34,130 bases of DNA from a virus. Taxonomy: Duplodnaviria > Heunggongvirae > Uroviricota > Caudoviricetes. Location of the stretch: IMG/VR virus record IMGVR_UViG_2859799533_000006, one strand, 5' to 3'. Positions 3,042 to 28,278 of this stretch are shown here, piece by piece; the first letter of the stretch is position 1, and every line of letters starts with the position of its first letter. The position numbers were made by a program, and so were the translations under genes. The notes under the pieces were generated by a model. The model was not told the origin of the DNA, did not search any database, and saw only the letters and a list, made by a program, of their open reading frames with translations.

Positions 3042-4169
3042 TTATTTGTGACATTGTGGTTGTTGTGCGACAGACATTGCTATTCGGCCCATATCCCAGA
3101 TAAAACCCGCCAGCTCACGTGCAACAGCAACAATTGTAATATTGACATTCTTTCCTTTGGCCTGAAGTTTTCGATACCTCTTACAAAGCCTGAGTTGAGC
3201 ATCCCATGCTCTGTCAATGACGGGGCGGGGTAAATTTTCCTGCCTTTTTTGTATTGCCGGACTGATGCGTGCCGGATGACGGTAACTCCACGCTGCCTCG
3301 ACCAATAGCTTTCTGGCATAGCTGTTTCCGGCTTTGGTAATGCTGCCCTGATGTCTGCTTCCACCCGATGAATATTCTGATGGCGTGATACCAAACCATG
3401 ACATCAGTTGTCGTGGATGTTCAAAACGGGTCAGATCACCCAGTTCAGAAATTAATCCAACCGCAGTAATAAACTGAATCCCTCGCATGGCTTGCAGCGC
3501 CTCTACTACCGGATACAGCCTCCATTCGGTAACGGCCTCCTTCAGGGCGGATTCCAGCCGTTCACATTGTGCCTGCCGGTCTTCTATTGTACGACGGTGT
3601 TCGTCAAAAGCTAATTGTCGCCAGGGACTTTCGAATGAGTATTTGCTGAGCCAGCGTCGGTGTGCAGGGCCCCAATCTGCTCGCCCGACATAATGGACCC
3701 CATGAACCAGAAGAAACGATTTCAGACGTTGCCTTGCATGCCGTAAATCATCGCGGGCAGATGCCCATGCCCGGGCCAAATCCCGGAATGCCTCATCTTC
3801 AATGCCGGGTACGTAGACAGCAGAAAGATCTCCTGCACGCAGTGAACGCACAAGTCTGATGGCATCACGGCGATCGGTTTTAACCCGCTCCCCCGGTTTT
3901 TTCGGGATAAGTGAGGGGGCGCAGACCATGCAGTCAAAACCGGATTTCACCAGCCGACGATAAAGTCCATAACCACAGGGCCCCGCTTCATAAACGATAC
4001 TGACCTGCGATGACTTTGACCTGAGACGTTTACAAAGATTCTGAATATCAGTAGGTGATGTGCCAATTTTACCCATCAGTTCAACAGGTTCTGAATTGAT
4101 AGCATAAGCGACAGTAATCGATTCTTTGTGAACATCTAACCCGACGTACAATGTGTTATTGTTGTTCAT
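3042..4169 (-). CDS. IS110-family transposase/recombinase
   Basis: 375 aa from MNNNNTLYVGLDVHKESITV (IS110-family N-terminal motif) with GGAGG 6 nt upstream of the ATG at 4169; the ORF track extends 16 codons further upstream to 4217. Confidence 0.85.
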   Translation of the reverse strand: MNNNNTLYVGLDVHKESITVAYAINSEPVELMGKIGTSPTDIQNLCKRLRSKSSQVSIVYEAGPCGYGLYRRLVKSGFDCMVCAPSLIPKKPGERVKTDRRDAIRLVRSLRAGDLSAVYVPGIEDEAFRDLARAWASARDDLRHARQRLKSFLLVHGVHYVGRADWGPAHRRWLSKYSFESPWRQLAFDEHRRTIEDRQAQCERLESALKEAVTEWRLYPVVEALQAMRGIQFITAVGLISELGDLTRFEHPRQLMSWFGITPSEYSSGGSRHQGSITKAGNSYARKLLVEAAWSYRHPARISPAIQKRQENLPRPVIDRAWDAQLRLCKRYRKLQAKGKNVNITIVAVARELAGFIWDMGRIAMSVAQQPQCHK

Positions 4170-4384
4170 GCTGGCCTCCGTGGTGGAAATACCGGGGTGT
4201 AGCAACAGCTCACCCATGCGGCTCTGACAACGATGTTAACCCGCGTTAAATATCCCACGTTGGCCAGCATCTGTCTCACGGAAAGTCATACTGCCTTACT
4301 ATCGTATTGATTGATCTGCATCAAATTAACGTAAAAGCAACTTCAGATAATACAAATCAGCAACACTGAATATGGGGAAACATT

Positions 4385-6109: not shown

Positions 6110-6237
6110 CCCAGCAGCCCCGACGAAGACAACATCATCCAGGCCATGGAAAGAAAAAGAGCAACCAGCATTAGTGAAAATGAAATGCCGACAATTACAC
6201 AGAGGATCTTCGCCAGCGTTATGAGTTTGTCTGACAT
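6106..6237 (-). CDS. small single-TM peptide upstream of Rz (speculative)
   Basis: [38 protein letters not shown]; stop overlaps the Rz start (ATGA). Overlaps the alternative ORF 6252..6434 in another frame. Confidence 0.25.
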
Positions 6238-6251
6238 GCTTAATCCTCCCT

Positions 6252-6434
6252 TCACGATTTCAACGCAATGACCAGTTTTGCCAGCCCATACAGCATCGGG
6301 GACACAGCAACACCGACCGCCACCCACTTAATGGCAAAAGCCAGTGCTCTGCTGATGTCATCAGTTACAGGCGCTTTCAGTTCAAGGCCGTTTTTCATGG
6401 TCAACCTCAACAGAATTCGTTTATACTTCGCCAT
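6252..6434 (-). CDS. small membrane protein between endolysin and Rz (speculative)
   Basis: [60 protein letters not shown] with a C-terminal hydrophobic segment. Confidence 0.25.
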
Positions 6435-6590
6435 GTTCTCCCTTGCCTTACTCAAGGTCAGAAACACAAAACCCCGCTTGGTGCCAACAAACGGGGTTTT
6501 TACTTTTATTCACTTACGTTTCGCCAGTTCGCAGGATTTCGTGTTATCCGTCCGCGTGCTCATGCCTTATTTTTCAGCAAAATATTCTGC

Positions 6591-7124
6591 TTATCTGTCG
6601 ATGTCCCAGCACGCCAGCGCACTTTCCTGGTCTCGCCGGGATACCTGACCGTAGCAATTATTTGAGCGGATACGGCAGTCTCTGCCACCGTCCTTAATCC
6701 ACCAGCGAATCGCTTCGCATGCTCCCCTGCGGTCACCAGCATTAATCCGTCTGTAAAACGTCGACGGGAAACACTTACCGGGGCCAATGTTATAGGGACA
6801 AAATGACGCGATACCCGCTTTCTGGGGTTCGGTCAGCGGCACTTTAATATTGCGCTCCACCCATGCCAGCGCCTTATCACGCTCAATGGCGTTGACCTGG
6901 TCGCATTTTTCCTTCGACAACTTCATGCCCGGGACGACAGGTTTACTATCCACCAGAATGGCACCGCGGCAGATGGTCCAGATACCCGCGCCATCACGGT
7001 ATGCCGTGGTGTGGTTACCTTCCTTTTCATCCAGAAACTGGTCGAGGATTTCAGGCGCAGGCGCACCTGCGGCAATCAGCGCCAGAACGGCAGCCGACAG
7101 GCCGTATTTGATTTTGGTGTTCAT
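6591..7124 (-). CDS. R: SAR endolysin (phage lysozyme, T4/P1/phage-21 R type)
   Basis: N-terminal signal-anchor-release domain (LSAAVLALIAAGAPAPE) followed by the catalytic E...D...T motif (EGNHTTAYRDGAGIWTICRG); partnered with a pinholin. Confidence 0.9.
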   Translation of the reverse strand: MNTKIKYGLSAAVLALIAAGAPAPEILDQFLDEKEGNHTTAYRDGAGIWTICRGAILVDSKPVVPGMKLSKEKCDQVNAIERDKALAWVERNIKVPLTEPQKAGIASFCPYNIGPGKCFPSTFYRRINAGDRRGACEAIRWWIKDGGRDCRIRSNNCYGQVSRRDQESALACWDIDR

Positions 7125-7174
7125 GGATATTTATCAGGGTTTATCGATTTCAAATCCCTGGATATGTTAAGTCT

Positions 7175-7519
7175 TCAGGCCAGCGGTGGAGTCTTCAGAG
7201 AACCCGTAATTATTCCCGGTAGTTTTCCTCTGTAGGTTATCAACACATCCTGCGCCTCTAAAATTACGGGGCGCTTTTCCGGCAACGGACCATCCCCTTC
7301 ACATAACCCGGCAGCAACATCCATGAAAAACTGCTTCGCCTGCTTTTTCGCCTCAGCTTCGTAAAACTCCAGCGTGGCATCTTCAGTACGGTCAAGACTA
7401 ATCGCCACATCTGGCAACAACAGTGACGGATACCCACCAATTTCCAGTGCCACAGTAACAGTAATCTTATTCGGGTAATTATTTATCCCTTTAACAACCA
7501 GTTCGTATTTTTTCTTCAT
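7175..7519 (-). CDS. hypothetical protein inserted between holin and endolysin genes
   Basis: 114-aa ORF MKKKYELVVKGINNYPNKITV... with GGAG 10 nt upstream of the ATG, overlapping the holin stop. Confidence 0.55.
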   Translation of the reverse strand: MKKKYELVVKGINNYPNKITVTVALEIGGYPSLLLPDVAISLDRTEDATLEFYEAEAKKQAKQFFMDVAAGLCEGDGPLPEKRPVILEAQDVLITYRGKLPGIITGSLKTPPLA

Positions 7520-7523
7520 CGCT

Positions 7524-7739
7524 TTACTCTCCCCGCGCCGCCTTACGACGGTCCTCTCTGATTTTGAAATACAGGTTAGTCAGATATGTCAGCAGCCCAA
7601 ACAACAGACTCCCCAGCACGCCTATTGCCGCCCACTGAGACGGGGAAACCCTGTCCAGCAACTGCAGGAACCAGTAGCCCGTTCCCACCGCTGACGTGGT
7701 GTATGACACACCTGTTGTGATTTTTTCCATCTGGTACAT
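7524..7739 (-). CDS. S: pinholin (phage 21 S21-like) with dual-start motif
   Basis: [71 protein letters not shown] closely matches phage 21 S; starts at Met1 and Met4 as in the antiholin/holin dual-start arrangement. Confidence 0.9.
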
Positions 7740-7815
7740 ACCCCGTCTCCCGCAATCCGGAAGCTCACAACAATATAAAGACCACCGGCACACACCGATG
7801 GTCCCTTGCGCATGC

Positions 7816-8061
7816 TTACATCATCATGTCGCTGTCAGGTGTAGGTTCACCGCCATCTGAAGCACTCCCGTCACCCGCGATACCTTCCGGCTCAGGAACC
7901 GCTGCTACGCCCAGCAGCTCATCCAGAATGGCATCCACTTCTGCATCAAGACGCGACTCAAGATTCTGGCGAAGTTTCTGTTTCAGTGCGCTCCGGACTT
8001 CTTCAGAGCGCAGGACTTCCTTCACTGCCTCTGCAGTGACCAGGGATGTGATTTCTGACAT
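7816..8061 (-). CDS. hypothetical acidic protein upstream of the lysis cassette
   Basis: [51 protein letters not shown]... with acidic C-terminus. Confidence 0.45.
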
Positions 8062-8086
8062 GGGATTTTCTCGCTGAAAGGGGTTG

Positions 8087-8269
8087 TTAAGGAGTAACGG
8101 GTTCTTCGGGTTTGCTTCCGGCTGACTGACTGGCGCTGATTTTCTCAGCGGCCCTTTTATCAATCTGCCTGCACCAGAAATCGCGCACAGCCCTGTACCC
8201 ACCCGAAAGAAGATACAGCACACAGACCGCCGTACAGAAGTACAGCATCACCTGATGAATAAATGTCAT
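8087..8269 (-). CDS. small putative membrane protein
   Basis: 60-aa ORF with hydrophobic segment MLYFCTAVCVLYLLSGGY. Confidence 0.3.
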   Translation of the reverse strand: MTFIHQVMLYFCTAVCVLYLLSGGYRAVRDFWCRQIDKRAAEKISASQSAGSKPEEPVTP

Positions 8270-8407
8270 AATTTCTTACCGTTATGGTTGACAATGAGAA
8301 TTGTTTTCATTTAAAAACCAATGTACGAAAGCATCTTTTCTTTACATTCTCCATTGGGATTACCTCCGCCAGCTTCCATTCCTGCCGCTGGCGGCTTTTT
8401 TTAGCAA

Positions 8408-10273
8408 TTATGCGGCTGCTCCAGCTTTGTTTGCTTTAACTTCCACCGTATCAATAAGTACAGGGTAGGTTTCTGCACTACCTGTAATATCCGTAATGAC
8501 AAACCTGTTGAGTCCATTAGCAGTATTGGCCCATTTCACCAGGTCAAACGCCTGTCCATCCACACCATCAAGCACCGGAGTAACATTAATGCTGTTACTG
8601 CCCTTAAATTTAAATGCAAGCGTATGCCAGTCATGGTCGAATGCGCCAAACGTGCCAAGTTCTTTTTGTTGATTAACTGTATGATGGTATGCAACATTAA
8701 TACTGGCTTTATCTGTCTGGACAAAGAAAGAACTCAGATGGCCTTCACCACCCTCACCCGGCCATTCCGCTATTCGCCAGTACAAACCAAAGGCATACTT
8801 GTTTCTGGTTGTCTCAAGATTGACGTTTTCGGGGATTTTAAACCGGACAGCAATTTCCCCGCCTTTTTCCAGTAAAAGTTTTGCCTTGTCTGCAGCAATA
8901 TCACAGTACATTGACCAGGATTTCGCGCTGTTATTTTTCTCAATTCGCAGAGCTTTATTGCCGCTGTCATCAACCAGTGTGCGTCTGCCATACATACCGT
9001 CCCAGCCATAAGGTTTCAGCTGATTGTCTGTAGCTTTTTTGGCATCGTAAAAAATTACAGACTCTGAGGTGGTAACCGGCCTGTCTGGAACAACCACCCC
9101 GGCAGTACCATTAACAAACGCAGAAGACTTACCCGCGCAGCTCAGAATCGCCGTTGCCAGACGGTCGGAAATAATCCCACGGCGAGCCCATGAACTGAAA
9201 TGGCTCGCCCTGTCCTGTGACGTCCAGGTGGCTGAGCTGTCACGCCATTTCGAACCGTAATAACCGATACCCGGAATGTCCGGGTCTTCTTCCGGTTTGT
9301 TCGTCGGCACATTCACCCCGTTCTCATCGGTCATGAACGGTACGAAATGGATATTCTTTTCCGTTTTATTTTTATAGCTGCCGTACACCGTCTGGTACGT
9401 GGATTCGTTCTTCTGCTTCCAGAAATACGTCGTGTCCCCGCATATCCAGGGAACACCGCCAGCAGAGCCACCGACGCACTGGCCTGCCATATCCGCCAGG
9501 TCTGCACGGAATTTATCAACCAGCGCACCAAACTGTGCGGCATGATTTGCCGGCGTACCGCCAAAATCAAATTCCCCCTGCATCCACACCACGGCAAACA
9601 GCACATTTTTCGGGTTCTTCTCCAGTGCCGCTTTTGTTCGACCGATAAGGTCCTTATACAGCGGCTTGTCCACACCCCAGCGGGTTGAATTCTCCGAGGC
9701 ACCACTCGCGTCACTGTATGTGCCATCAGCTCCGGTGGTGAACGCTGAACCACCACGACAGCACGGAACCAGCAGAATGCCCGCATTCGCCGGTATAAAC
9801 GGCAGCAGTTTTTTGGCGATATGCAGCCCCTGCCCCACGGTTCCGTACTGCCCCTTTGACAGGTCCGCTTTCGGATGGTTAAGACGGCTCATGTCCTGCA
9901 CATCATGCAGACAATGGTCCGCCGGAATGATGTCGTTATATTTGCATGCTGCACCGCCCGGTGTCACCGTACTGCGACGCGCCAGTTGCTTAATACGCGG
10001 GTCCGGACGGTCATATGTCCCCGGCAGCGGAAGGCCTTCACCATACGACATGCCGTTTGACTGCCCTGCCAGAACCACAACAAAGTAATACTCCGGGTTG
10101 CTGGTGGCGCTGATTACTGCACCTTCTGCTGCAATCGCCTGCATCAGAGTATAAGGGGTTATGGCCACCGGACTACCAAACGGCTGCCAGCCCTCTTTCA
10201 GTTTATGTGTCAGCTTTTCCGCAAGATCTGACGGCGACGCCGCCCTGACAACATCATAGTGTTTAAATGCCAT
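8408..10273 (-). CDS. NanS-p-type sialate O-acetylesterase (prophage-encoded)
   Basis: About 620 aa starting MAFKHYDVVRAASPSDLAEKLTHKLKEGWQPFGSPVAI (DUF1737-like N-terminus) followed by an esterase-type domain (VVLAGQSNGMSYGEG); sits where NanS-p sits downstream of stx in Stx phages. Start could also be the upstream ATG at 10288. Confidence 0.8.
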   Translation of the reverse strand: MAFKHYDVVRAASPSDLAEKLTHKLKEGWQPFGSPVAITPYTLMQAIAAEGAVISATSNPEYYFVVVLAGQSNGMSYGEGLPLPGTYDRPDPRIKQLARRSTVTPGGAACKYNDIIPADHCLHDVQDMSRLNHPKADLSKGQYGTVGQGLHIAKKLLPFIPANAGILLVPCCRGGSAFTTGADGTYSDASGASENSTRWGVDKPLYKDLIGRTKAALEKNPKNVLFAVVWMQGEFDFGGTPANHAAQFGALVDKFRADLADMAGQCVGGSAGGVPWICGDTTYFWKQKNESTYQTVYGSYKNKTEKNIHFVPFMTDENGVNVPTNKPEEDPDIPGIGYYGSKWRDSSATWTSQDRASHFSSWARRGIISDRLATAILSCAGKSSAFVNGTAGVVVPDRPVTTSESVIFYDAKKATDNQLKPYGWDGMYGRRTLVDDSGNKALRIEKNNSAKSWSMYCDIAADKAKLLLEKGGEIAVRFKIPENVNLETTRNKYAFGLYWRIAEWPGEGGEGHLSSFFVQTDKASINVAYHHTVNQQKELGTFGAFDHDWHTLAFKFKGSNSINVTPVLDGVDGQAFDLVKWANTANGLNRFVITDITGSAETYPVLIDTVEVKANKAGAAA

Positions 10274-10533
10274 GGTTCTTTCCACCATCTGAAAAATGAT
10301 TCTTTAAAATACCTGACATGTAATACAGAAAAAACACAAAACCATACCTTAAATAAAAACCTCATCATCAAGCAGATATGCATGGATAAACTACAAGACG
10401 AGATATAAACCACCCTGCATTTAAATAAACAATAAACAACATCAGAAAAATAATTCTGCTCTATGGTTTACATTCAAAAATATCATTTATACTTTTCAGA
10501 ACATCACCAGCAATGCATAAACAAGGAAACCAA

Positions 10534-10869
10534 ATGAAGTGGATTGTGATTGATACAGTTATCCAGCCATCATGCGGAATATCTTTTTCAGTCATATGGA
10601 GTAAAATAAAATTAATAATCTGGTATCAATCGGATGCTTTCTTACCTCCTGAAAGTATATTTACACTGACTCACACAGGCATCATGCTCAATAACAAAGT
10701 GCTACCTGTAACCATTTACAACGTAGTACCATTCAATAAAACATTCTGGAATTTAATCAAAAACAGCCAGGAATGCCCTACAAATACAGATAACGTATTG
10801 AATGAATGCTTTAATAACCGTTGCACTCTGCAAATATGTCCTTATGGGCTAAAACAACAAAGTCCATAA
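10534..10869 (+). CDS. hypothetical protein in AT-rich cargo slot (stx-equivalent position), opposite strand to the late operon
   Basis: [25 protein letters not shown]... with AAGGA 7 nt upstream; very AT-rich context; several Cys near the C-terminus. Confidence 0.35.
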
Positions 10870-10903
10870 GGAGTTTACTCACATCTGACAAAATCAATAT
10901 AAA

Positions 10904-10925
10904 CAGCCCCTCCGGAGAGGGGCTG
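10904..10925 (-). terminator. rho-independent terminator (minus-strand transcripts)
   Basis: 9-bp GC-rich stem cagcccctc/gaggggctg with loop cgga; on the minus strand it is followed by a U-rich tract. Confidence 0.5.
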
Positions 10926-11158
10926 GAGAGTGGCGCTATGTGCCATTGCATGGTGCCGGGTGCCTCCCGGTGAATTCAGTACCAGCACCTGAATCTGCGA
11001 TTATCCCATATACCTACTCGCTGATTGCCCCTCCGCACAGGGGGATTCACCATGCCAGTTTCTTTTAACAAACTCCCCGCAAACCAGACAACAGTCAACC
11101 GCCTGAATTGTGAGACATTTAAAAAAAAGCCCGCAAAAGCGAGCCAGGGAAAATAAGT

Positions 11159-11235
11159 GTGGCGCGTTCTACTGTATTCGAACCAGTGACCGATTGCTTA
11201 GAAGGCAATTGCTCTGTCCGGCTGAGCTAACAACG
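11159..11235 (-). tRNA. argN: tRNA-Arg (anticodon UCU)
   Basis: Reverse complement gives a cloverleaf with anticodon loop CCTTCTAAG, T-loop TTCGAAT and CCA end; one acceptor-stem and one T-stem mismatch. Confidence 0.6.
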
Positions 11236-11251
11236 CAGGATACAGATAATG

Positions 11252-11326
11252 AACCGCCTTCGGGGACCCGAACTCCGCGCAACCAGCTTCGAAGGCTGGC
11301 GCTCTTTCCTGATGAGCTAATGGCGG
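11252..11326 (-). tRNA. tRNA-Arg-like (anticodon UCG), somewhat degenerate
   Basis: Hand-folded cloverleaf: D-arm gctc/gagc, anticodon stem ccagc/gctgg with loop CTTCGAA, T-loop TTCGGGT; acceptor 6/7 and T-stem 4/5 pairs; A58 replaced by G. Confidence 0.4.
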
Positions 11327-11333
11327 TATGTGA

Positions 11334-11409
11334 TGGTGGCCCTTGCTGGATTTGAACCAGCGACCTGGCGATTATGAGTCGCTCGCTCTCACCACTGAGC
11401 TAAAGGGCC
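11334..11409 (-). tRNA. ileZ: tRNA-Ile2 (anticodon CAU, ileZ-like)
   Basis: Reverse complement GGCCCTTTAGCTCAGTGGTGAGAGCGAGCGACTCATAATCGC...GGTTCAAATCCAGCAAGGGCCACCA closely resembles E. coli tRNA-Ile2; anticodon CAT. Confidence 0.8.
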
Positions 11410-11458
11410 GGGAGCAGAATAATAATGGTGCGTAATTAATTCTGCAATCTCATCCGTT

Positions 11459-12508
11459 TCAAACGATTAAATCCTGAACTTCCCTGACTGTCTGCTCAAA
11501 ACGTCCGGTCTCCAGTTCAACGCCAATCGCACGACGCCCGAGCGCCAGTGCCGCTTTTACCGTTGAACCTGAGCCCATAAAAAAATCTGCAACCTGGTCT
11601 CCCGGACGACTGCTCGCGTTGATTATCTGCTGCAACATTTCTGCCGGTTTTTCGCACGGATGTTTCCCTGGATAGTACTGCACCGGTTTATACGTCCACA
11701 CATCGGTGTACGGCACCTGCACCGTCACACCGAAATACCTCCGCAAATTTTTATATTCACTCAGCAGTTCCATATACTGCCGGCTCAGCTCACTGTATGT
11801 GCTGACCAGTTGGTAATGGGACTTTTCCAGTTCTCTCCGCTGATGTTTCTCTTCTGCCACCCGGGCAAACAGCGACTGTAATTTCAGATAATCGCTTTCG
11901 TTCGGTAGCTGCCACTGACTGGCACTGAACCAGTGCGACACCATGTTTTTCTTTCCTGTGGCATCTGCAATCTGTTTTGCCGTTATCCCCAGGGCAGCTC
12001 GCGCATCACGAAAGTAAGCAATCAGCGGGGCCATCACATTCTGTTTCAGTACCCTGCCCTTCGCCTCATAGCCATCATCTTTCGGGCGGTACGGCCCCTG
12101 ATAATGTTCCGCGAACAGAATGCGCTCTGTGGCGGGGAAATACGCCCGCAGGCTTTCCTTGTTGCATCCGTTCCAGCGTCCGGACGGCTTCGCTCAGATA
12201 ATATGGTTCAGCACACTGAAGCGTTCACGCATCATGATTTCGATATCAGATGCCAGGCGATGACCACAGAACAGGTAAAGACTTCCGGCAGGTTTCAGCA
12301 CCCGCCAGAACTGCGCCAGACACTGCTCCAGCCACTTCAGGTAATCATCGTCGCCCTTCCACTGGTTATCCCAGCCCTCAGGCTTCACTTTAAAGTACGG
12401 CGGGTCCGTGACTATCAGGTCAACAGAATTTTCGGGTAACGACCGGATAAATTCCAGGCAGTCGGCGTTGATTAACTCACAACTGGATATTTTTACAGTA
12501 TTAAGCAT
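11459..12508 (-). pseudogene. phage DNA N6-adenine methyltransferase (DPPY motif) interrupted by an in-frame TGA at 12194..12196
   Basis: N-terminal ORF has LIVTDPPYF; reading continues in the same frame across TGA (...SVLNHII-TGA-AKPSGRWNG...KQNVMAPLIAYFRD...), about 350 codons in total. Confidence 0.8.
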
Positions 12509-12658
12509 GGATCATTAAGCCTGTCTCTGATAGGCTCATTCTGCTTTTGCGCAAAGCAGTGGGCCTGAGGTTTGCTTGTGAACCCAACGCATGAGCAGAT
12601 GGCTGGTGGGTGCCCCTAACACCCACCAGCCGCCCATTTACCACAAATAAAAAAGCCT

Positions 12659-12856
12659 TCACTGCGGAAGGCGTCTGTAACAACCGAACTGATAGTCTGC
12701 CAGACCCGCCATAACCAGCTGGGTCAGTATTAACTGGCAGCGTTCGCGTGAAAGGTAAGTATTCTGCGCTATCTCCCCGACTGTCGCCGGTTCGGTAACG
12801 CTTAATTCATTAAACACCACTCTGGCGGTTTCTGTCATATCCTGCTGTTTTAGCAT
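12659..12856 (-). CDS. small putative DNA-binding (winged-helix-like) protein between Q and the methylase
   Basis: MLKQQDMTETARVVFNELSVTEPATVGEIAQNTYLSRERCQLILTQLVMAGLADYQFGCYRRLPQ with AAGGGA RBS; HTH-like segment. Confidence 0.4.
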   Translation of the reverse strand: MLKQQDMTETARVVFNELSVTEPATVGEIAQNTYLSRERCQLILTQLVMAGLADYQFGCYRRLPQ

Positions 12857-12978
12857 GTCTTTTTCCCTTTTCCGGTTAACGTGACACACCAATAACTCTT
12901 GTCGAAAAAGCCAGCAAGCTGAAAGACAGGTATTCACCGCCACCAGCGCGTTTACTGTACTGACGCGATTTCAGTCAT

Positions 12979-12999
12979 AAAAAAACCGCCAGGCGGCGG
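12979..12999 (-). terminator. rho-independent terminator about 85 nt downstream of Q (tR'-like)
   Basis: Minus-strand hairpin ccgcc-gcct-ggcgg followed by T7; this position downstream of Q is where lambdoid tR' lies. Confidence 0.5.
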
Positions 13000-13082
13000 G
13001 GTGTAAAAAATCTTCTAACGTCAGGCATAAAACGCCCATCATTAGAGCAAATTTACCACAGATTCGGGAAAAATCAACAACA

Positions 13083-13556
13083 CTATCGCGTTACCCTCTT
13101 TAACTGCCGCTCCGCCCATGCCTCTTCAATGTCAAACCGAACCACCAACGTATCGTAAAAGCGTTTCACTGATTTTTTCCACGTATCAAGCGTGATAGCA
13201 CTCGTCACTTTGCATATGGCATTAAATGCCTCCGTTGATGGTAGTCTTTCACAGCCACGACCACCACAACGCTGGCAGTCTCTGATAACAGGCATACCAC
13301 GTTTTACCGACTCTTCACGATGAATGGCGACACCACGCCCACGGCAATCCTTACAGGCGGTGGAAACCTCACCCTTTCCGCCACACTCCGGACAGGCAAC
13401 TTTTACCACCTCCCTGACTTTTTTCCATTCTTCCCAGTAAGACGGATACACGCCTTTTGTGCACTTTGCCCACACTGGTGGCTTACCATCCGGATACTGG
13501 ATCTTGTTTGTAAAAACCTCGCTTTCAATAAATTTTTTCCGTGACAGCAGGGGCAC
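13083..13556 (-). CDS. Q: late-gene antiterminator Q (zinc-finger part); has only a GTG start and is probably the 3' part of a frameshifted longer Q gene
   Basis: CPECGGKG...CKDCRGRG zinc-finger motifs; sits upstream of tR' and the tRNA trio; no ATG start, and overlaps the upstream ORF by 154 nt. Confidence 0.6.
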   Translation of the reverse strand: MPLLSRKKFIESEVFTNKIQYPDGKPPVWAKCTKGVYPSYWEEWKKVREVVKVACPECGGKGEVSTACKDCRGRGVAIHREESVKRGMPVIRDCQRCGGRGCERLPSTEAFNAICKVTSAITLDTWKKSVKRFYDTLVVRFDIEEAWAERQLKRVTR

Positions 13557-13903
13557 TGTTTTTTGCTCGCCGCGCTACGGGCATAATCTTCAAACGCATA
13601 CGAAGCCATAATGCGCATCACTACCGGTTTTATTTCTGCCGGAAGTTTTCTCAACGCCGCCACACGATCGCACCGACTGAGTGCATAATCTGCCAGTAAT
13701 TCTGTTGCCCGCGCCCTGTCATTCATACTGATGCCCATTTTCCCCAGGAACGCAGAAAACCCCATCTCAGCCCGATTCTGTGTCATGCCCTGCGCGGCCA
13801 TCACATCAGTGATACTCAGCGCATCTTTTGACGTTGAGGCCGATGCATCGGTCAGGCTAGGGGATTTTGGGGAGTAGTATTTCGGTAAATCTTCCAGTTT
13901 CAT
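13403..13903 (-). CDS. ORF upstream of and overlapping Q; likely the N-terminal part of the same Q gene displaced by a 1-nt indel in an A6 run
   Basis: MKLEDLPKYYSPKSPSL...RIMASYAFEDYARSAASKKQ then low-plausibility tail; two A6 runs (plus-strand T6 at 13533..13538 and 13559..13564) lie at the frame switch. Confidence 0.4.
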   Translation of the reverse strand: MKLEDLPKYYSPKSPSLTDASASTSKDALSITDVMAAQGMTQNRAEMGFSAFLGKMGISMNDRARATELLADYALSRCDRVAALRKLPAEIKPVVMRIMASYAFEDYARSAASKKQCPCCHGKNLLKARFLQTRSSIRMVSHQCGQSAQKACIRLTGKNGKKSGRW

Positions 13904-14274
13904 TTTTTGACCTGCTCTTCATGCATTATGGGGTAAATCTTCACCCCCATACGTCCACCAGATACTGGCTGACCACGAACGATATTGATTTCATCAAACT
14001 GCTCATCGTCCATTAACACTCCCGCATGCGTCAGCGCATCCAGCGGTGCTTTCAGGATATTGTCCAGGTCGCGACGACGCTTATCCGGTGGCTCTGCAAT
14101 CACCTTTATCGCCAGCCTTCCGGACAGGCTTAATTTCAGCCGCTGCTGGCGAACAATAAGCGCCACAGCCCGGCGATAACGCTTTCCCTCCTCCGAGATA
14201 AAATATGTGCTGCCACGGCGTCGCCAGTAAGTGTTCACCGTCGGCGGGTAAGGTAAAACCAAATCTATGAGCAT
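13900..14274 (-). CDS. rusA: Holliday junction resolvase RusA
   Basis: 124 aa with RusA signature (LPYPPTVNTYWRRRG...DKRRRDLDNILKAPLDALTHAGVLMDDEQ). Confidence 0.9.
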   Translation of the reverse strand: MLIDLVLPYPPTVNTYWRRRGSTYFISEEGKRYRRAVALIVRQQRLKLSLSGRLAIKVIAEPPDKRRRDLDNILKAPLDALTHAGVLMDDEQFDEINIVRGQPVSGGRMGVKIYPIMHEEQVKK

Positions 14275-14286
14275 CAGTCACCTCTT

Positions 14287-15282
14287 TTACCCAAGCACGC
14301 CAGTTGCAAAGGCGTGATCAAGAAAACGAAAAATTAAATCAACCTGAGAACCATGCTTTTCTTCGAACGCCAGAGGATCCGCATGAAGCTCGTTGTGATG
14401 CTCCCGACACAGCGGTAGCGTGAAAATATCGTGAGATTTTGTCCCCATTCAGCCCTGACCATGACCAATCAGGTGATGGGGATCGTCGGCTGGCTTACCA
14501 CAACACGCACACGGCTGTGTCTTCACCCAGCGTGTGTATTTCTCGTTAACCCAGCGGCGACGTTTTGGGCGTAACATAAAAGACTCCGGCGACTCCGGAT
14601 CCACTTTCAGCGCCAGCACCTTTTTCGCCTTATCCTGGATGATGCTGGTGGCAGGAACCGAAGGCACAAGGTCACTTTCCCGGGTGACAGACGGCACAAC
14701 AGGCTTCGGTAATCTCAGTGCCTTACGGGCTGCACTTTCCGGTAAGGCATCCGCCAGGTCATTACGAATCAGCCACCAGCACAGTTCCGGCATTGTCACA
14801 ACGTGACTGTCATCAAAACCGAGATCCCGACGCACAACAGACAACACCCAGCGGGCACAGTTATCCGTTGCCATTGATTCCAGCCGTTCCGTGAACTGGT
14901 CACGGAGAAGATTGTCACAGTGCCAGCACAGACGGATTGCGCCTGGCGCGTGCCGCATTGTGGTCATGTTCTCGCTGTGCCAGTCGGAATGAGGCCACTG
15001 ACAGCCCTTTTCACGAAGTAACCAGCTCTCAAGGCATTCCACGCCACCAGCACGACGGATCACCGCCTCATGGCGGAACACGGCCCGAACGGCAGGATCA
15101 TCCGCCAGCGGTTGTGATGCTGCCGGAACGGCACCGCTGGCGAAAGATGAATAACGTTCCGGCTCAGGCTCCAGCAGGACACGCCCCTGCATAAACAGGG
15201 GCATCAGCTCTGAACCGGGCCTGAACAATACAATCCCCATTCGCGGGGCAATTTCAGGAGTCAACAATGCTCTCACGGTCAC
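14287..15282 (-). pseudogene. prophage DUF968-like protein with C-terminal HNH-like zinc motif, interrupted by an in-frame TGA at 14449..14451
   Basis: Frame reads ...CACCGKPADDPHHLIGHGQG-TGA-MGTKSHDIFTLPLCREHHNELHADPLAFEEKHG...-TAA; the Cys/His motif is split by the stop. Confidence 0.65.
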
Positions 15283-15328
15283 CTCAGCGAACGATATTGC
15301 ATGAACGCAGGAGAAAAAAATTCAGCCA

Positions 15329-15586
15329 TCACGCAGTAAACTCCTTCACCAGCGTTTCAAACTGGCTTACCTGGCCTTCCAGTTCCGCCACGCAATCCAC
15401 CAGCTCATCCACCGCCTTTTGTGTACGGTGTTTTGCCTGCAGCAGATCACGAAGCGCCGGAGTAAGCTGCTTGCGGAGCGTATCTTTTGCCACGCTCGTT
15501 TTTTCCATCTGTTCAGCACAACGAAGCATCTCCTGCGCCTGCCGACGAAGTTGTTCCGGTGAAACAGTGATTGTTCTGTTGTTCAA
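15329..15586 (-). CDS. hypothetical coiled-coil protein
   Basis: 85-aa ORF with its start overlapping the helicase gene stop (ATGA); no recognisable motif. Confidence 0.4.
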
Positions 15587-16984
15587 AATAAACGCTCCGT
15601 TTTACTGCCCGACATGCGGTTATTGCTGTATCTGCGCGGATTGCCCGGCGTCATGGGTGTGGAAAGAACCCGGGCACTCTCCTGGTCCACAGGCAGAAAA
15701 TGTCCGTTATGAAAACGCCGGTAAATGGTCCCGAGCGTGCCATTACGCTGTTTCGTGATGTTGATTTCTGCTATGCCTCTGGCCTGAGTTTCCGGGTTGT
15801 ATACCTCATCCCTGTAAAGCATCAGAATGATGTCGGCATCCGCCTCGATTTCCCCGGAGTTTTTCAGGTCCGAGTTCATTGGGCGTTTATTGGGTCTGGA
15901 TTCCACGCCGCGGGAGAGCTGGCTCAGAGCAATCAGCGGAAAACCGCCGGATTTTGCCAGGCTTTTAAGTCCCTTTGAGATTTCCCCCACCGCAAGGTCG
16001 TGACGCCCCGTACTGCGGGTTTTAATCAGGCCGAGGTAATCGACCACCACCAGCGCCGTTTCCGGGTGTTTCATCCGGTGGTGCTTCGTGGTTGCACATA
16101 TCTCATCAATGGGTCAGGTTTGCCTGGTCCACCATCCAGATATTACGCCCCGTCATTCGTCCCACGCCCTGCGAGAAACGCGCCCAGTCTTCATCTTCAA
16201 AACGGGCAACAGACTTAAGACGGGATACCGGCATTCCACCGGCAGCAGACACCATACGTTCACCAATCTGGATGTTCGCCATCTCCATGGTGAACAGAAG
16301 CACGCCATGCCCCTGCTCAGTCACCTTGTCGATGATGTCCAGCGCAAGTTCGGTTTTCCCCATCGAAGGACGGGCGGCAATGAATACCAGGTCTCCGGGC
16401 TCCATACCGCCCGTTTTTGCGTCCAGTTCATCAATACCGGTCATCAGCGCCCTGGATTTCTCCAGTCCCTGATTGCGGCATTCAACACGGTCGACCACTT
16501 CCAGAAGGACATCATCAATGTGAACCGGCTGAATGACGCCCTTTCCGGTCGACAGTGAGGCCATCATGTTCTGCACATCCTTCAGGGCATCCTCGGCTGC
16601 TTCACAGGTATACGCATCACGTAAATTCTGTAATGCTTCAGTCAGTGTTTTTTCTGCATCGCGCAGTGCGGCATTGCGCCGCAACGCTGCGACATAGTGC
16701 TCCAGTGAAGACTTCACCCAGGTTTTGCGTCCGGTGTCGGTAATCACCGGGGCAAGTTCCGGCATCTCATTGCACAGCAGTACGGGGTCAATGACGCCGG
16801 ATATGCGAGCCTGTCTGCAAATCCCCGCGTAAATATCCCGGTACTGACGCACAAAAAATACATCCGCCGGAAGTGTGGCCAGAATATCCATCACTTCCGG
16901 ATCGGCCCCACGCAGAAAAAACGCACCGATGACAGCGCCTTCCAGGTCATCGTTACGCCATGCCGGGGTGTTCTGGCTGGTCAT
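15583..16984 (-). pseudogene. DnaB-like replicative helicase, frameshifted near 16106..16116
   Basis: N-terminal ORF ends ...[14 protein letters not shown]-stop; the +1 frame continues [31 protein letters not shown]... with RecA-fold motifs ([28 protein letters not shown]); switch at a C-run. Confidence 0.8.
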
Positions 16985-17868
16985 GCGGCAACACCTCCGA
17001 TACGAGAACGGTAGCTGGGCCAGTTAAACGACAACCAGTTGCGCCCGCCATCGGTGATCCTGTCGGCAATCCGGGGACTGATGAACGCCCACAATTCTTC
17101 CGGTGAAAGATTGCTGATCAAGATAGTTGGCAAAATACCCTCATACCGGGCATTGATAATTTCCTGCAAAATGGCCATTTCAGCCGCACTGCCAAACTGA
17201 ACGCCGACTTCGTCGACAATCAGCAAATCCAGTGACGCATAATGCTCAATGACGTCATCCGCTGTTTTTTCACTGTCATTCCGCCAGCAGTTTTTCACAG
17301 CCCGGGTAAGGCGCATCACGTCGGTGATCTCCACACTGGCCAGATAGTTACGGATGATGTGTTTTGCCATTGATACCGCCAGATGATTTTTCCCGGTACC
17401 GCAACTGCCGGTCATAACAAGACTGGTACCGTTCTCCAGCATATCTGGCCAGTTCTCCGCATAGCGGCGACAGGCCGCAAGATTTCTGGCTGCGTCAGGA
17501 TTAACCTCCAGATAATTATCAAACTCGCAGTCCCGAAAACGCAGAGCAATTCCGGCGTTATCAGTCAGTTCTTCCGCCTTGAGGGACGACAGTTCCATGG
17601 TCAAATAACTGGCCTCAGCGATCAAGCAGTCAGGGCAGCATGAAATTTTTTCTCTGTCCTCGCCATTACGATCGCTCCACACCAGTATATGCGTACGATA
17701 TTTACCGTGTTTTTCGCAATATCCGCGACCTTCACGCATCAGGCAGGAACGATAAGGCCATGGCTTTTCGCCCTTCTGAGCAAATGCAATCTCTGCCCGT
17801 AACTCATCCATTCGCGCCTGTAGTCTTGTTTGTTTCTCACGTTGGTCAATCGTCATCATCGCTGTCAC
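16981..17868 (-). CDS. DnaC-like helicase loader (AAA+ ATPase)
   Basis: 295 aa with Walker A TGSCGTGKNHLA and Walker B LLIVDEVG; overlaps the helicase start. Confidence 0.85.
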   Translation of the reverse strand: MTAMMTIDQREKQTRLQARMDELRAEIAFAQKGEKPWPYRSCLMREGRGYCEKHGKYRTHILVWSDRNGEDREKISCCPDCLIAEASYLTMELSSLKAEELTDNAGIALRFRDCEFDNYLEVNPDAARNLAACRRYAENWPDMLENGTSLVMTGSCGTGKNHLAVSMAKHIIRNYLASVEITDVMRLTRAVKNCWRNDSEKTADDVIEHYASLDLLIVDEVGVQFGSAAEMAILQEIINARYEGILPTILISNLSPEELWAFISPRIADRITDGGRNWLSFNWPSYRSRIGGVAA

Positions 17869-17869
17869 C

Positions 17870-18860
17870 TCAGAATGTCAATTTGTTACTGGATTTACCG
17901 AATTTGTCAGACATGGCTCCCAGGCCAGCCAGGACATCAACCTGTCGCTGTCGCCCACCTCCGTGAGCGGCTGGCTGTTGCCAGTAATCTTCGAAGTGAC
18001 GATCGGGTCCAAAGAACGTCGCAGCCTGCTTCACGAACTGTGTGCCGGTATTTCCTGTAGCACGTACCCAGGCGGCATACCGCTTCACGCCATCAAGCAT
18101 GGTCTCCGGTTTTATTCCTTCCCTGATACGGGCTTTCCAGGCTTTGAAGGCTGCTGACTTGGAATTGCCACCAGCACGTTTGGGATATTCCTGCCAGGCC
18201 TGTTCAAATTCCGGTGAATATTCCTGTCGGGCAGAACGCGCTGGCGCAGACGCGTCAGCGGATGCATCAATAGTGTTTTTAGTCTCCGTTGTAATCTCTG
18301 TAGTAATCTCTGTATTTGTATCAACATTCGGCGTATCCCTGTTCCGTTATGACGTCGGGGGTGTTCCGTTTTAACGTAATAGCTGTATCGCTGATTGCAT
18401 TATTGCTGTTACTTTCTGGCGAAACAGAAGAAGGTGTGGTGATGGCCGCAATTGCCTGTGGGTTGATCCCGACAAACAAAATATTGCTGCATTTCACCCC
18501 ATCGAGCATTTCCACCGTGCGTAAATCCAGAGTAATAAACCCTGCATCGCGCAGACGCTTCAGCGCATCTGCGGTTTCCCTTTTCCCGAAACCAAACTGC
18601 TCAGCAAACGCCTGGTAGCTTCTTTGCAGTTTGTCGCCCTGAAAACGCTTGCGATATCCCAGCAACGCTCCGGTGTGCTCATCCCTGACCTCTGTCGGGC
18701 GGTACCAGTAAACGATCTCTGAAAGCAGAGCGATAGCCGTCGCATCCGGACGCCCACTGGGTAGTCGAATATATTTCCACCAGTTCGCAGGTGTAACATT
18801 GCCGGAAATATTAATTTGACCAATAGCCATAACTTCCGGTGTGGGGGCGTAACGGCTCAT
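17870..18860 (-). pseudogene. phage replication initiator (O-like), frameshifted near 18337 at a GGG run; contains an in-gene tandem repeat
   Basis: N-terminal ORF 18321..18860 ends ...DVITEQGYAEC-stop; the +1 frame continues DTPNVDTNTEITTEITTE...EYSPEFEQAWQEYPKRAGGNSK...MLDGVKRYAAW... to 17870; 12-bp tandem gtaatctctgta x2 at 18291..18314. Confidence 0.6.
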
Positions 18861-19377: not shown

Positions 19378-19568
19378 GGACGCACCTCCACCGTAGTTAC
19401 GTATTTAACCGGGCTACCTTTCATTGAGATGGTTTCACACATCTCTGCCGCTTTCAGTTCCGCTGTTTTTCTGGATTTATAGCGACGGTGCCAGACAGAT
19501 ACATCCGTGCGAACTGATACATCGTTTCTGTATTCCGTAGTGGAGATGATGATTTCGTAACTAATCAT
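19374..19568 (-). CDS. hypothetical protein (coupled operon member)
   Basis: 64-aa ORF overlapping the rha stop and the next start by 4 nt. Confidence 0.4.
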   Translation of the reverse strand: MISYEIIISTTEYRNDVSVRTDVSVWHRRYKSRKTAELKAAEMCETISMKGSPVKYVTTVEVRP

Positions 19569-20116
19569 GGGCGAACCTCCTTGTCAGAACCATTCAGCCT
19601 GGAATCAACAAGTGCAGCGCCAAAAACAGCATCACCAACACGGTCGTACAGTTTGCTAGCCAGCGGAGATTCAACGGCCTTAAGCATTGGATAAAGCTGG
19701 CTTGTCCAGATTTGATGGATTTCACGCAAATGCAGGTATACGCCTCTGGCGTTTCGTGCGACAGCTGACATATCAACCGCGTCAGCACCAGATAAATTCT
19801 TCTCCATCTGGTTAAAGGCGTTGATGTATGCCTCTTTGAACCGGGCTGCACGTTTGCCAGTAAAGCCCATAGCAAGGAACGCGAAGCCATCGCGGGTGAT
19901 TTGATAGCAAGGTAGTTTGCGGCCTGTGCAATCGGTGTAATCACTGGGCTGAAAATTCAGCTCAGTGAATTCAACAGAGCACTCAAGCGTCTGGATTTTT
20001 TGAATAACGTTTTTGTGCTGCTTGCAGAAATATTCGGCAACGGCCAAAGAAGAGGTAACAGCCTTCCCATGGATAACATCAATTTTAGGGTGAGTTTGGG
20101 TAGGGGTGGTTGCCAT
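19565..20116 (-). CDS. rha: phage regulatory protein Rha family
   Basis: MATTPTQTHPKIDVIHGKAVTSSLAVAEYFCKQHKNVIQKIQTL...FTELNF...YQITRDGFAFLAMGFTGKRAARFKEAYINAFNQME matches the Rha N-terminal domain; GAGGA RBS 9 nt upstream of the ATG at 20116. Confidence 0.8.
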   Translation of the reverse strand: MATTPTQTHPKIDVIHGKAVTSSLAVAEYFCKQHKNVIQKIQTLECSVEFTELNFQPSDYTDCTGRKLPCYQITRDGFAFLAMGFTGKRAARFKEAYINAFNQMEKNLSGADAVDMSAVARNARGVYLHLREIHQIWTSQLYPMLKAVESPLASKLYDRVGDAVFGAALVDSRLNGSDKEVRP

Positions 20117-20280
20117 AGTGACATCCTCATGTGCGAATTTTGAAAACTCACCACATGGGACGCCAATCACAGAGGTGGTGAGACGTACAGGGTTGGCGTA
20201 ACCGGTCGCACATGACCCCGGCGCATCTTTCGATGCCCCTGCACGCCCCACCATAATTTGGATGTGAGGAAACGTGCGCA

Positions 20281-20303
20281 AAAAAACCGCTGAAGCGCGG
20301 TTA
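20281..20303 (-). terminator. putative rho-independent terminator upstream of rha (minus strand)
   Basis: Minus-strand hairpin aaccgcg...cgcggtt followed by T7. Confidence 0.45.
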
Positions 20304-20521
20304 TGCGCATGTGCGAATTTCAGGACGCCAATCCCGGCACCCGCTTTATAAGGTGCGGAGACAGTGTAACGTCCCGAAATTGCAGAATCAATATTTGGTC
20401 TTGAAATGATCATATAGCTGCTGATATCTTTAGAACTGTTCTTGGATGTTTCGGAGCCGTTTTATGCGAAACAGCTCCCCGTTATTGATGTTGAGTGAGC
20501 CGGGTTACTCCCGGCTTTTTT

Positions 20522-21453: not shown

Positions 21454-21564
21454 TCTTTAGTCTCACACCAGATACTTTGTTATTCAACGATGTTAACCGC
21501 GGGATTCCAAAGTATCAAGAAATTCTGTTACTTTCGTATCAACAGCCATGAGAGGAGAAGAAAA
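21454..21564. promoter_or_regulatory. divergent promoter/operator region between the repressor gene and the rightward operon
   Basis: 110-bp intergenic region with the repeated motif CAAAGTATCAA (21507..21517), an inverted partial copy gatactttg (21470..21478) and a related tactttcgtatcaac (21528..21542). Confidence 0.5.
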
Positions 21565-22221
21565 ATGAAGTCTTTAGGTGAACGTCTCATCAACGCACGG
21601 CAAAAAGCTGGGTTAACACAAGATGCGTTGGCTAAAAAAGCTGGGATCACCAGAGTTGCAATCAGTAAAGCCGAGCAAGGCCTTACAAAAAGTTTCAACG
21701 GTGACACCCTTTTTAAAGTTGCAGCTGCACTGCGGTGTTCACCGCAGTGGCTTCAGAACGGAGATGAAAAAGATAAGCATTGGGAAAATAATGTTAAGAG
21801 CTGCCCACAGAGAGACACAGCACACTCTTACCCTGTAATTAACTGGGTTCAGGCAGGATTATTCGCAACTTCTGGTGATGACTACAACATGTATGATCAG
21901 GATAATTGGAGGCATTCTGTAAAATACGCTGGTGAGAGGGGGTTCTGGCTGGAAGTGCACGGAGACTCAATGACTTCGCCCGTAGGAATAACATTTCCTG
22001 AAGGAATGTCGATCCTTGTCAACCCAGATAAAGAAGTTTTTTCAGGGTGTTACGTCATCGCCAGAAAAAAATCCACCAATGAAGCAACATTCAAAAAATA
22101 TATTTCTGACATGGGAAAGGCGTTTCTAAAGCCCCTTAATCCACAATATCCAATCATAGAAATGGACAATGATTGCGAAATAGTAGGTGTTGTGGTTGAT
22201 GCCAGGTGGGATATTTTCTGA
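21565..22221 (+). CDS. cI: CI-like repressor (HTH plus LexA/S24 peptidase domain)
   Basis: MKSLGERLINARQKAGLTQDALAKKAGITRVAISKAEQG (HTH) followed by an S24-like domain with GDSM (Ser) and a conserved Lys; GAGGAGAAG RBS. Confidence 0.85.
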   Translation: MKSLGERLINARQKAGLTQDALAKKAGITRVAISKAEQGLTKSFNGDTLFKVAAALRCSPQWLQNGDEKDKHWENNVKSCPQRDTAHSYPVINWVQAGLFATSGDDYNMYDQDNWRHSVKYAGERGFWLEVHGDSMTSPVGITFPEGMSILVNPDKEVFSGCYVIARKKSTNEATFKKYISDMGKAFLKPLNPQYPIIEMDNDCEIVGVVVDARWDIF

Positions 22222-23448: not shown

Positions 23449-23756
23449 CTATATTTCCAGACATCTGTTATCACTTAACCCATTACAAGCCCGCTGCCGC
23501 AGATATTCCCGTGGCGAGCGATAACCCAGCGCACTATGCGGATGCCATTCGTTATAATGCTCGAACGCCTCTGCAAGGTTCTTTGCTGCCGTTAACCCGT
23601 CTGGTTTGGGCATGATACTGATGTAGTCACGCTTTATCGTTTTCACGAAGCTCTCTGCTATTCCGTTACTCTCCGGACTCCGCACCGCCGTGTTCTTCGG
23701 TTCAAGTCCCAACATCCGGGCGAACTGGCGTGTTTCATTAGCCCGGTAGCATGAAC
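23449..23756 (-). pseudogene. insD: IS2 transposase InsD, 3' fragment
   Basis: ORF 23449..23715 encodes the InsD C-terminus ([31 protein letters not shown]...); separated from the 5' part by IS629. Confidence 0.85.
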
Positions 23757-23798
23757 TGAACCGCCCCGGGTTTCCTGGAGAGTGTTTTATCTGTGAAC

Positions 23799-24689
23799 TC
23801 AGGCTGCCAGATCATCGTTTCCGATGGAAGCATAATAAGCTTTTTCTGCTTCTGCCGGAGGAGTATGGCCCAGCCTTTCCAGCAATCGTCGATTGTTATA
23901 CCAGTCCACCCACGTGAGTGTGGCCAGTTCCACTTCTGCACGGTTTTTCCAGCTCTTACGGTGTATTACCTCCGCTTTGTAAAGACCATTGATGCTCTCC
24001 GCCATCGCGTTGTCATACGAGTCGCCTGTACTTCCTGTTGATGCCAGTAATCCGGCTTCCTTAAGCCGCTGTGTGTAGGCCAGCGATACATACTGAGAAC
24101 CTTTATCACTGTGATGGACCGTGCCGGACGGTCGACGGGCCCATAACGCCTGCTCCAGAGCATCCAGCACGAATGTCGTTTCCATGGACGATGAGACCCG
24201 CCACCCCACGATGTATCCGGCAAACACATCAATGATGAACGCCACATAGACGAAGCCCTGCCATGTGCTGACGTAAGTAAAATCAGCCACCCACAGCTGG
24301 TCAGGTCGTTCTGCCACGAACTGACGGTTTACGCGGTCGCCTGCGGCAACGGCTTTCCGGCTGATGGTCGTACGGACCTTTTTACCCCGGAGAACACCGG
24401 CAAGTCCCATAACCGCCATGAGACGTGCCACAGTGCATCTGGCCACTCTGATACCTTCCCGTAACAACTGACGCCAGACTTTACGCACACCGTATACCTG
24501 ATGATTCCCATCGTATACGCGCAGTATCTCTTTCTTCAGCCAGTCATCGCGCTGCGCACGGGCACTGCGTTTATCAGGATGATGTCGCTGTTGCTGACAG
24601 TGGTAATACGTTGACGGGGCAATATGCAGTTCACTGCATACCGGTCCGACCCCGTACAGCTTACGCAGCTTATCCAGCAGTGGCATCAC
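23799..24689 (-). CDS. IS629 transposase OrfB (DDE integrase domain)
   Basis: 296-aa ORF with the IS3-family catalytic region; overlaps orfA in the arrangement for a -1 frameshift fusion. Confidence 0.9.
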
Positions 24690-25012
24690 TTTTTCCAGAG
24701 GCGGTCGAACTCCGCCTTCGCAAAATAAGCGGAAGCCTGGCGAAGGATATCGTTACTGCGGCGCAGTTCACGATTTTCACGCTCCAGCTCTTTCAGACGC
24801 TGACGTTCAGCGGTGGTGAGCCCTCCATCACCGCCCCCGGTATCCCGCTCATGCTGGCGAACCCAGACACGCAGAGTCTCCGGCGTACAGCCAATCTTTG
24901 GAGCAATGGAACAAATTGTCGCCCATTGTGAGTCATATTCGCCCTGACTTTCCAGAACCATACGGACTGCCCGTTGACGGACTTCGGGGGAAAAACGAGT
25001 ATTTTTAGTCAT
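24686..25012 (-). CDS. IS629 transposase OrfA
   Basis: 108-aa HTH/leucine-zipper protein [22 protein letters not shown]... Confidence 0.9.
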
Positions 25013-25066
25013 CCTGTTTACCTCTTTCTCAGGAAGTTTAGTCTCCAGGATTCCCGGGGCGGTTCA

Positions 25067-27801: not shown

Positions 27802-28242
27802 CTATCAGGCACTGCGCGAGGCGGCGGAACAGGCAACGCAAGATGAATGGGTAGCATATATTTTGCCGGGTCATAACGGCATTTATCCTGCGCGCACGTC
27901 TGAGGGTAGGCATTGCGGATACTTTATTGACTGGCCTGGCGTCTGTCAGGGGCGGGAGAGCATCAGCATCAGAACCTACGCAGTGAATTGCAATGACGCA
28001 TGGCTAAACACCGAAGGTGATGACATCTCCGGCTCATACGTTAAGTACAAAGACCATCAGGAAGTGGTTGCCGCTCTTGAAGCCAAGTGCGCGGCGCTGG
28101 CAGCGGAGAATGCGGGAATAAAGTCTGCAATTCCAGAATCACGGGATATTGAGGATGACAATGACAATATGGATGACGTATCTCTCGCGGAAGACTTCGG
28201 GTTCAATCATGCAATAGAACGGATGAGGAGACAGATTGAACC
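27788..28242 (+). pseudogene. Ead/Ea22-like protein, C-terminus disrupted by IS629 insertion two codons before the native stop
   Basis: MSKIDYQALREAAEQATQDEWVAY... is the Ead/Ea22-like N-terminal signature; reading across the 3-bp target duplication gives ...RMRRQID-T-stop. Confidence 0.65.
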
Positions 28243-28278
28243 GCCCCGGGTTTCCTGGAGAGTGTTTTATCTGTGAAC

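Follow-up and report, generated by a model that had tools for sequence, protein, structure and literature searches.

A TGA at the conserved Trp105 codon as a probable inherited nonsense lesion in an M.EcoGII-type adenine methylase gene of a defective lambdoid prophage

The locus described here lies in a 34,130-nt stretch of viral DNA (IMG/VR record IMGVR_UViG_2859799533_000006), which is called the window below. The gene order runs from an antiterminator through a 65-aa ORF to an adenine methyltransferase gene, and from there through tRNA(CAU) and two tRNA-Arg genes to an IraM-like gene, a SASA/NanS-type esterase and the lysis genes. The same order is found at a chromosomal locus of E. coli O104:H4 (L014) and at loci L001-L003. 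The features of the window on which our analysis is built are the following:

11459-12508, minus strand: whole methyltransferase frame by conceptual translation, 349 codons plus a terminal TGA, with PF01555 matches on both fragments
12194-12196, minus strand: premature TGA at codon 105 (plus-strand 'tca'); Trp (TGG) in orthologues
12197-12508, minus strand: N-terminal fragment of 104 sense codons; motif IV (DPPY) present, AdoMet-binding motif I absent
11459-12193, minus strand: predicted untranslated remainder, codons 106-349 plus stop, with the rest of the Rossmann domain, the target-recognition domain and motif I
11160-11409, minus strand: three prophage tRNA genes with anticodons CAT (tRNA-Ile in orthologous loci), TCG (Arg) and TCT (Arg), directly downstream of the methylase
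12655-12672: terminator-like hairpin and T-run after the 65-aa ORF, from a consensus-based scan
12986-12999, minus strand: terminator-like hairpin and T-run just downstream of the antiterminator gene, from the same kind of scan
13083-13903, minus strand: late antiterminator (Pfam Antiterm; 273 aa when intact), its tblastn match split over two frames
14287-15282, minus strand: DUF968 gene, two adjacent same-frame ORFs (277 and 53 aa) across an in-frame stop
15583-16984, minus strand: DnaB-type helicase, split into ORFs of 292 and 163 aa
361-4217 region, left end: IS66 element (tnpA/tnpB/tnpC), with a 530-aa transposase at 1158-2750
3042-4217, left end: IS110-like ISSso6 transposase
23753-25066 and 28235-29548, minus strand: two IS3-family copies of 1.3 kb, IS629-like, in the same orientation, each with ORFs of 108 and 296 aa

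Conceptual translation of the minus strand from 12508 to 11459 yields one frame with exactly one internal stop. An earlier note on this DNA had described a DPPY methylase of about 350 codons, open in one frame but for a TGA at 12194-12196, and this description is borne out. The residues around the stop read ...RERFSVLNHII*AKPSGRWNGCNKES... (...SVLNHII*AKPSGRWNG...), and the stop codon is embedded in the nucleotide context CAUAUUAUC-UGA-GCGAAG (AUC-UGA-GCG). The altered base is window position 12194, a C-to-T change on the plus strand that corresponds to a G-to-A transition on the coding strand. In the ORF list, the gene appears as a 104-aa ORF (12194-12508) and a 192-aa ORF with a GTG start (11459-12037), both in the same frame. 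The DPPY motif comprises residues 35-38 (12395-12406) and the sequence FMGSG residues 310-314 (11567-11581). This order of motifs, with motif IV (DPPY) at the N-terminus, the target-recognition domain in the center and motif I (FxGxG) at the C-terminus, fits the beta-class of methyltransferases. The Pfam family N6_N4_Mtase (PF01555; curated cut-off of 26.7 bits) matches the N-terminal fragment with 51.9 bits and the part behind the stop with 87.3 bits, while an intact orthologue scores 150.6 bits. The first in-frame start behind the stop lies 53 codons further on, at GTG158/ATG159 (12032-12037), and is followed by ATG189 (11942-11944), from which gene callers predict an ORF of 161 aa. In the window allele the frame behind the stop stays open for 244 codons, which means either that the lesion is evolutionarily young or that this test is underpowered.

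Homologues of the gene were detected by megablast in 1,978 of 5,426 complete E. coli genomes. The best E. coli match is 98.6% identical and consists of an uninterrupted 1050-nt gene annotated as 'DNA-methyltransferase', followed by tRNA-Ile. When 91 nt of the window are aligned with three intact orthologues from E. coli, they depart from all three at a single base, the last one of codon 105, where the orthologues read TGG and the window reads TGA; the mutation is thus a G-to-A transition on the coding strand. Position 105 is a tryptophan in 46 of 46 intact alleles, drawn from E. coli and IMG/VR loci and encoding 26 distinct proteins, and the tryptophan of this 'IIW' sequence is also conserved in the distant, structurally solved beta-class methyltransferases M.RsrI and 9c3u/8urk. 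Furthermore, 935 E. coli records contain an exact 61-mer with TGG at this codon. The TGG-to-TGA nonsense change that the earlier note had proposed is in agreement with the three aligned orthologues, the intact alleles and the 61-mer records, and the alignment with intact homologues that it had suggested as a check leaves a difference of one base.

The gene belongs to a family that has been characterised in detail. M.EcoGI and M.EcoGII are non-specific adenine DNA (and RNA) methyltransferases encoded by prophages of E. coli O104:H4 C227-11; they are 349-aa beta-class enzymes, and M.EcoGI is a near-twin of M.EcoGII (Murray et al. 2018, PMC5778455). M.EcoGII methylates adenine whatever the surrounding sequence and is silent in normal growth, and its constitutive expression is harmful and leaves cells sick (PMC5778455). 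According to an AlphaFold-based model, its Rossmann catalytic domain is formed by residues 1-134 and 260-349, its target-recognition domain by residues 160-237 and its dimer interface by residues 97-110 and 116-140 (PMC11551740). Beta-class enzymes are thought to be active as dimers only (PMC7544214). The translated frame of the window shares ~331 of 349 residues (about 95%) with the published M.EcoGII sequence, which we took from a machine-read supplement (file 5 of PMC11551740), so that OCR accounts for a few of the mismatches. Identity to the E. coli O104:H4 chromosomal copy amounts to 325 of 349 residues (93%). Like M.EcoGII and M.EcoGI, the gene has 349 codons and the order DPPY, target-recognition domain and FxGxG, and is flanked by the late antiterminator on one side and by the Ile/Arg/Arg tRNA genes on the other. 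It differs from both in having TGA instead of TGG at codon 105, so that the 104-aa fragment alone is expected, and in the replacements D61E, H157N and G225R at otherwise invariant positions. A functional member of the M.EcoGI/M.EcoGII family should have an uninterrupted frame for the whole enzyme; because of the TGA at codon 105, we file the locus as a pseudogene of this family and not as a functional member.

Among phage records, the nearest relatives are Stx2-converting phages, phage 1720a-02 and phiP27, with 83-92% nucleotide identity. In these Stx2-converting and lambdoid phages (Escherichia phage 1720a-02, Stx2a_WGPS2, phiP27), a homologous methylase gene is followed by the same tRNA gene, and phage 1720a-02 has been named as a relative of M.EcoGII (PMC5778455). 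Annotation describes their copies as intact genes, and the TGA 61-mer is absent from all of them, whereas the prophage of the window is defective. The term 'Stx-type prophage', used in the earlier note, is fair as a description of kind given that the closest phage records are Stx2-converting phages; the element at hand is defective.

We then asked how widely the TGA allele is distributed. The exact 104-aa product was found in 148 index blocks of a public assembly collection and on 134 contigs from NCBI and Logan assemblies. Positions 6194-18508 of the window are 100% identical over 12,315 nt to CP026866.1 (GCA_002949955.1). NCBI and UniRef attach the name Shigella boydii to proteins identical to those of this 4.68-Mb contig, and the species name used here rests on these protein names and not on the CP026866.1 record itself. 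Two complete genomes, CP026866.1 and CP026867.1, contain the TGA in two different prophages each, and the antiterminators of the two prophages are unrelated (Pfam Antiterm versus Phage_antitermQ). The second prophage, located ~0.8 Mb away (CP026866.1 1051337-1063651, L005; CP026867.1 920686-933000, L007), has the same W105* allele and also carries a PF05869 Dam-type methylase gene. An exact search with the TGA 61-mer gave no match in the 5,426 complete E. coli genomes and none in phage records. In IMG/VR, an exact 42-mer identified 4 contigs with TGA and at least 120 with TGG. An exact 42-mer had no match among the GTDB species-representative genomes, presumably because Shigella is merged into E. 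coli in GTDB. A literature search with CP026866, CP026867, their GCA identifiers and a peptide string returned no match. Judging from these counts, the TGA allele is rare outside the Shigella boydii-type group.

Comparison of the carriers points to a single origin of the allele, as every TGA allele has a private G at nt 183 of the gene (D61E) that is absent from all intact alleles. L004 and L005, the two prophage copies of one genome, show no difference between nt -10 and nt +468 of the gene; they differ at 12 sites in the preceding 330 nt and at 6 sites further into the gene. At two loci from other strains (L008 and L009), gene haplotype and flank haplotype are swapped; this exchange between strains indicates recombination between co-resident prophages. 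Moreover, L011 and L013 join a TGA-bearing 5' part to a 3' part that resembles intact E. coli alleles. From these patterns we infer that the mutation probably arose once and was then redistributed by the mosaic recombination usual among lambdoid prophages. The linked TGA and D61E are a handy lineage marker and illustrate the exchange of alleles between co-resident prophages.

The neighbourhood of the gene shows further damage. In an alignment with intact copies, the antiterminator has lost one nucleotide from an A-run (A7 to A6), which shifts its frame. E. coli UM146 and DEC3D/DEC3F also have named products of the same antiterminator cluster that are cut short at 166 aa, and the A-run may be a recurrent slippage site. 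Because the two terminator-like hairpins lie between the antiterminator and the methylase, transcription of the latter likely depends on antitermination. In addition to the split DUF968 and helicase genes, the window contains four IS elements, namely IS66, the IS110-like ISSso6 and the two IS3-family copies. Compared with a third copy in L006, both IS3-family copies have the same 5 mismatches (99.6% identity), and each gives a full-score match to the Rfam ALIL frameshifting pseudoknot; judged by their matches to the third copy, the two are probably near-identical to each other. The pair brackets ~3.2 kb of prophage DNA. IS66 and ISSso6 lie beyond the lysis genes, where related E. coli prophages have their terminase genes.

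Further lesions are present in other copies of the methylase gene itself. One TGA allele (L011, 2347-3400) is disrupted a second time, by a +1 frameshift that falls in a T-run within FxGxG, and unrelated frameshifts occur in 3 of ~50 TGG-bearing IMG/VR copies (L021, L053 and L124). Apart from the stop, the private changes of the TGA clade are D61E, H157N and G225R, all three nonsynonymous and at positions invariant in intact alleles, while 28 of the 60 private changes among intact alleles are nonsynonymous and 32 synonymous. This difference is suggestive of relaxed constraint in the TGA clade, although with three substitutions it is not significant (roughly p = 0.1). The TGA therefore has the marks of a nonsense pseudogene: it is one step away from a sense codon, it is seen across assemblies, and more lesions are present in the gene and its neighbours. 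Pseudogene formation and IS expansion are part of reductive genome evolution in Shigella. The locus resembles this pattern, as an accessory gene with a nonsense mutation is surrounded here by genes that are frameshifted or split and by several IS elements. Compared with the usual Shigella pseudogenes nothing is unusual, the one extra detail being that the same null allele is present in two prophages of one genome.

Several other explanations of the TGA were weighed against this reading, two of which the earlier note had itself named as ways in which it could fail: a read error at this base, and natural termination of the homologues here with a separate downstream gene. If the true base were a G and the gene intact, a sequencing or assembly error would take just the form that we see, a single-base difference from the orthologues. 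Yet the site is outside any homopolymer, 134 contigs of independently made assemblies, from NCBI and Logan, have the identical 104-aa product, and the TGA is present twice per genome, at different loci, in two complete genomes as well as on four IMG/VR contigs, every carrier sharing the linked private SNP at nt 183. The exact-protein look-ups and the IMG/VR pattern scan effectively refute an error, the chance of which we consider negligible. Hardly more credible is a natural two-subunit methyltransferase, in which the 104-aa N-terminal fragment and a separately initiated C-terminal fragment form an active enzyme. Both pieces retain Pfam matches, and the downstream 161-aa ORF is preceded by an AGGA-like sequence 9 nt before its ATG. 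The C-terminal fragment, however, can start at codon 158 at the earliest and would lack at least residues 105-157, which cover part of the Rossmann core (1-134) and of the dimer interface (97-110, 116-140). The split form was found in none of the 5,426 E. coli genomes and in no phage record; it is one base apart from the intact form, and its relatives are single 349-codon genes. All stop-bearing copies represent one D61E-linked allele rather than homologues that terminate naturally at this point, and with no start codon between the stop and codon 158 we reject a two-subunit enzyme.

Somewhat less improbable, but still very unlikely, is a programmed recoding of the UGA, either as selenocysteine or as tryptophan through readthrough or a suppressor tRNA, which would give a full-length and perhaps attenuated methylase. 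UGA is a leaky stop codon in enterobacteria, where tRNA-Trp reads it at a low level as a near-cognate codon. The 244 open codons downstream in the window allele and the persistence of the allele across numerous genomes, and not in one prophage alone, are consistent with such a recoding. As constitutive M.EcoGII is deleterious (PMC5778455), an attenuated form could in principle be tolerated or favoured. Against this, no SECIS-like structure was detected: an Rfam scan of 500 nt around the UGA, with E values up to 10, gave no match near the site and one unrelated hit at chance level, and shuffled sequences fold as well as the 71 nt that begin shortly before the UGA and run downstream (z = -0.29). 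On the grounds of this permissive scan and the folding comparison, selenocysteine insertion or another structured recoding was rejected. The 46 intact alleles have Trp at position 105, and not Cys or Sec. The sole tRNAs of the element have the anticodons CAU, UCG and UCU, none of which could read UGA, and a suppressor among these adjacent phage tRNAs was rejected as well. Further points against recoding are that the gene's own terminator is also TGA, that the upstream antiterminator is frameshifted, that one carrier (L011) has the second frameshift in motif I, and that private substitutions behind the stop affect invariant residues. Nothing suggests that readthrough of this UGA is programmed.

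We therefore regard the TGA as very probably real and inherited, a W105* nonsense mutation by which an M.EcoGII-type methylase gene became a pseudogene through ordinary decay. The gene is carried by a lambdoid prophage that is itself defective, within a genome of the Shigella boydii type. In this scenario, a G-to-A transition would have converted the conserved Trp105 codon from TGG to TGA, and translation would end after 104 residues. The fragment would keep the catalytic DPPY motif, but half of its Rossmann domain would be missing, as would the target-recognition domain and the FxGxG motif that binds AdoMet. Because of these losses, an active enzyme is most probably not made and loss of activity is the expected outcome, as far as can be judged from the sequence. 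Even with a restart at codon 158 or later, residues 105-157 are not supplied by any product. Low-level readthrough of the UGA could possibly yield traces of full-length protein. The gene sits in the late operon of an IS-riddled, defective prophage whose antiterminator is itself frameshifted, and for this reason the lesion in the methylase would be part of ordinary prophage decay. Descent, together with recombination among the lambdoid prophages that share a genome, would have spread the allele within the lineage.

A selective version of this history is conceivable, since a promiscuous M.EcoGII-type methylase would be harmful if its expression were leaky. Here, W105* would have been selected as a null allele after the control of the late genes had decayed, and would have been copied by recombination into both co-resident prophages; in a variant of this idea, weak UGA readthrough may keep a trace of activity. 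The facts behind it are the presence of the same allele in two prophages per genome and the shuffling of gene and flank haplotypes between strains. Hitch-hiking and ordinary recombination between prophages also account for both facts, and we consider it unlikely that the null allele was favoured.

Returning to ordinary decay as the preferred reading, the feature is an ordinary pseudogene of a well-characterised family and of a kind already known. Its significance is small; it is mildly notable in that the same null allele occurs in both lambdoid prophages and that the enzyme concerned is harmful when mis-expressed. The Shigella boydii-type lineage would have lost the M.EcoGII-type non-specific adenine methylase in both lambdoid prophages, and methylome studies of such strains should for that reason not expect prophage-derived promiscuous m6A. 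The 104-aa and 161-aa ORFs should be annotated together as one pseudogene.

Some minor features of the window were noted in passing. The first phage tRNA (11334-11409, minus strand) is called Met (CAT) by ARAGORN and is annotated as tRNA-Ile, of the ileZ type, in the orthologous E. coli and Stx-phage loci; it is presumably lysidine-modified. The tRNA cluster and a terminator-like hairpin behind it are closely followed by a strong Rfam match to the sRNA STnc100 (126.9 bits; 10895-11084, minus strand), which adjoins an IraM/PmrD-like ORF at 10513-10869 on the plus strand. A CI-like S24 repressor is encoded at 21490-22221 on the plus strand. Finally, Rfam matches to the C4 antisense RNA (75 bits) and to isrK (62 bits) at 20171-20356 on the minus strand lie directly upstream of an Ash/Rha-domain ORF (19565-20413), an arrangement that resembles an antirepressor control module of the P1/P7 or Gifsy type.
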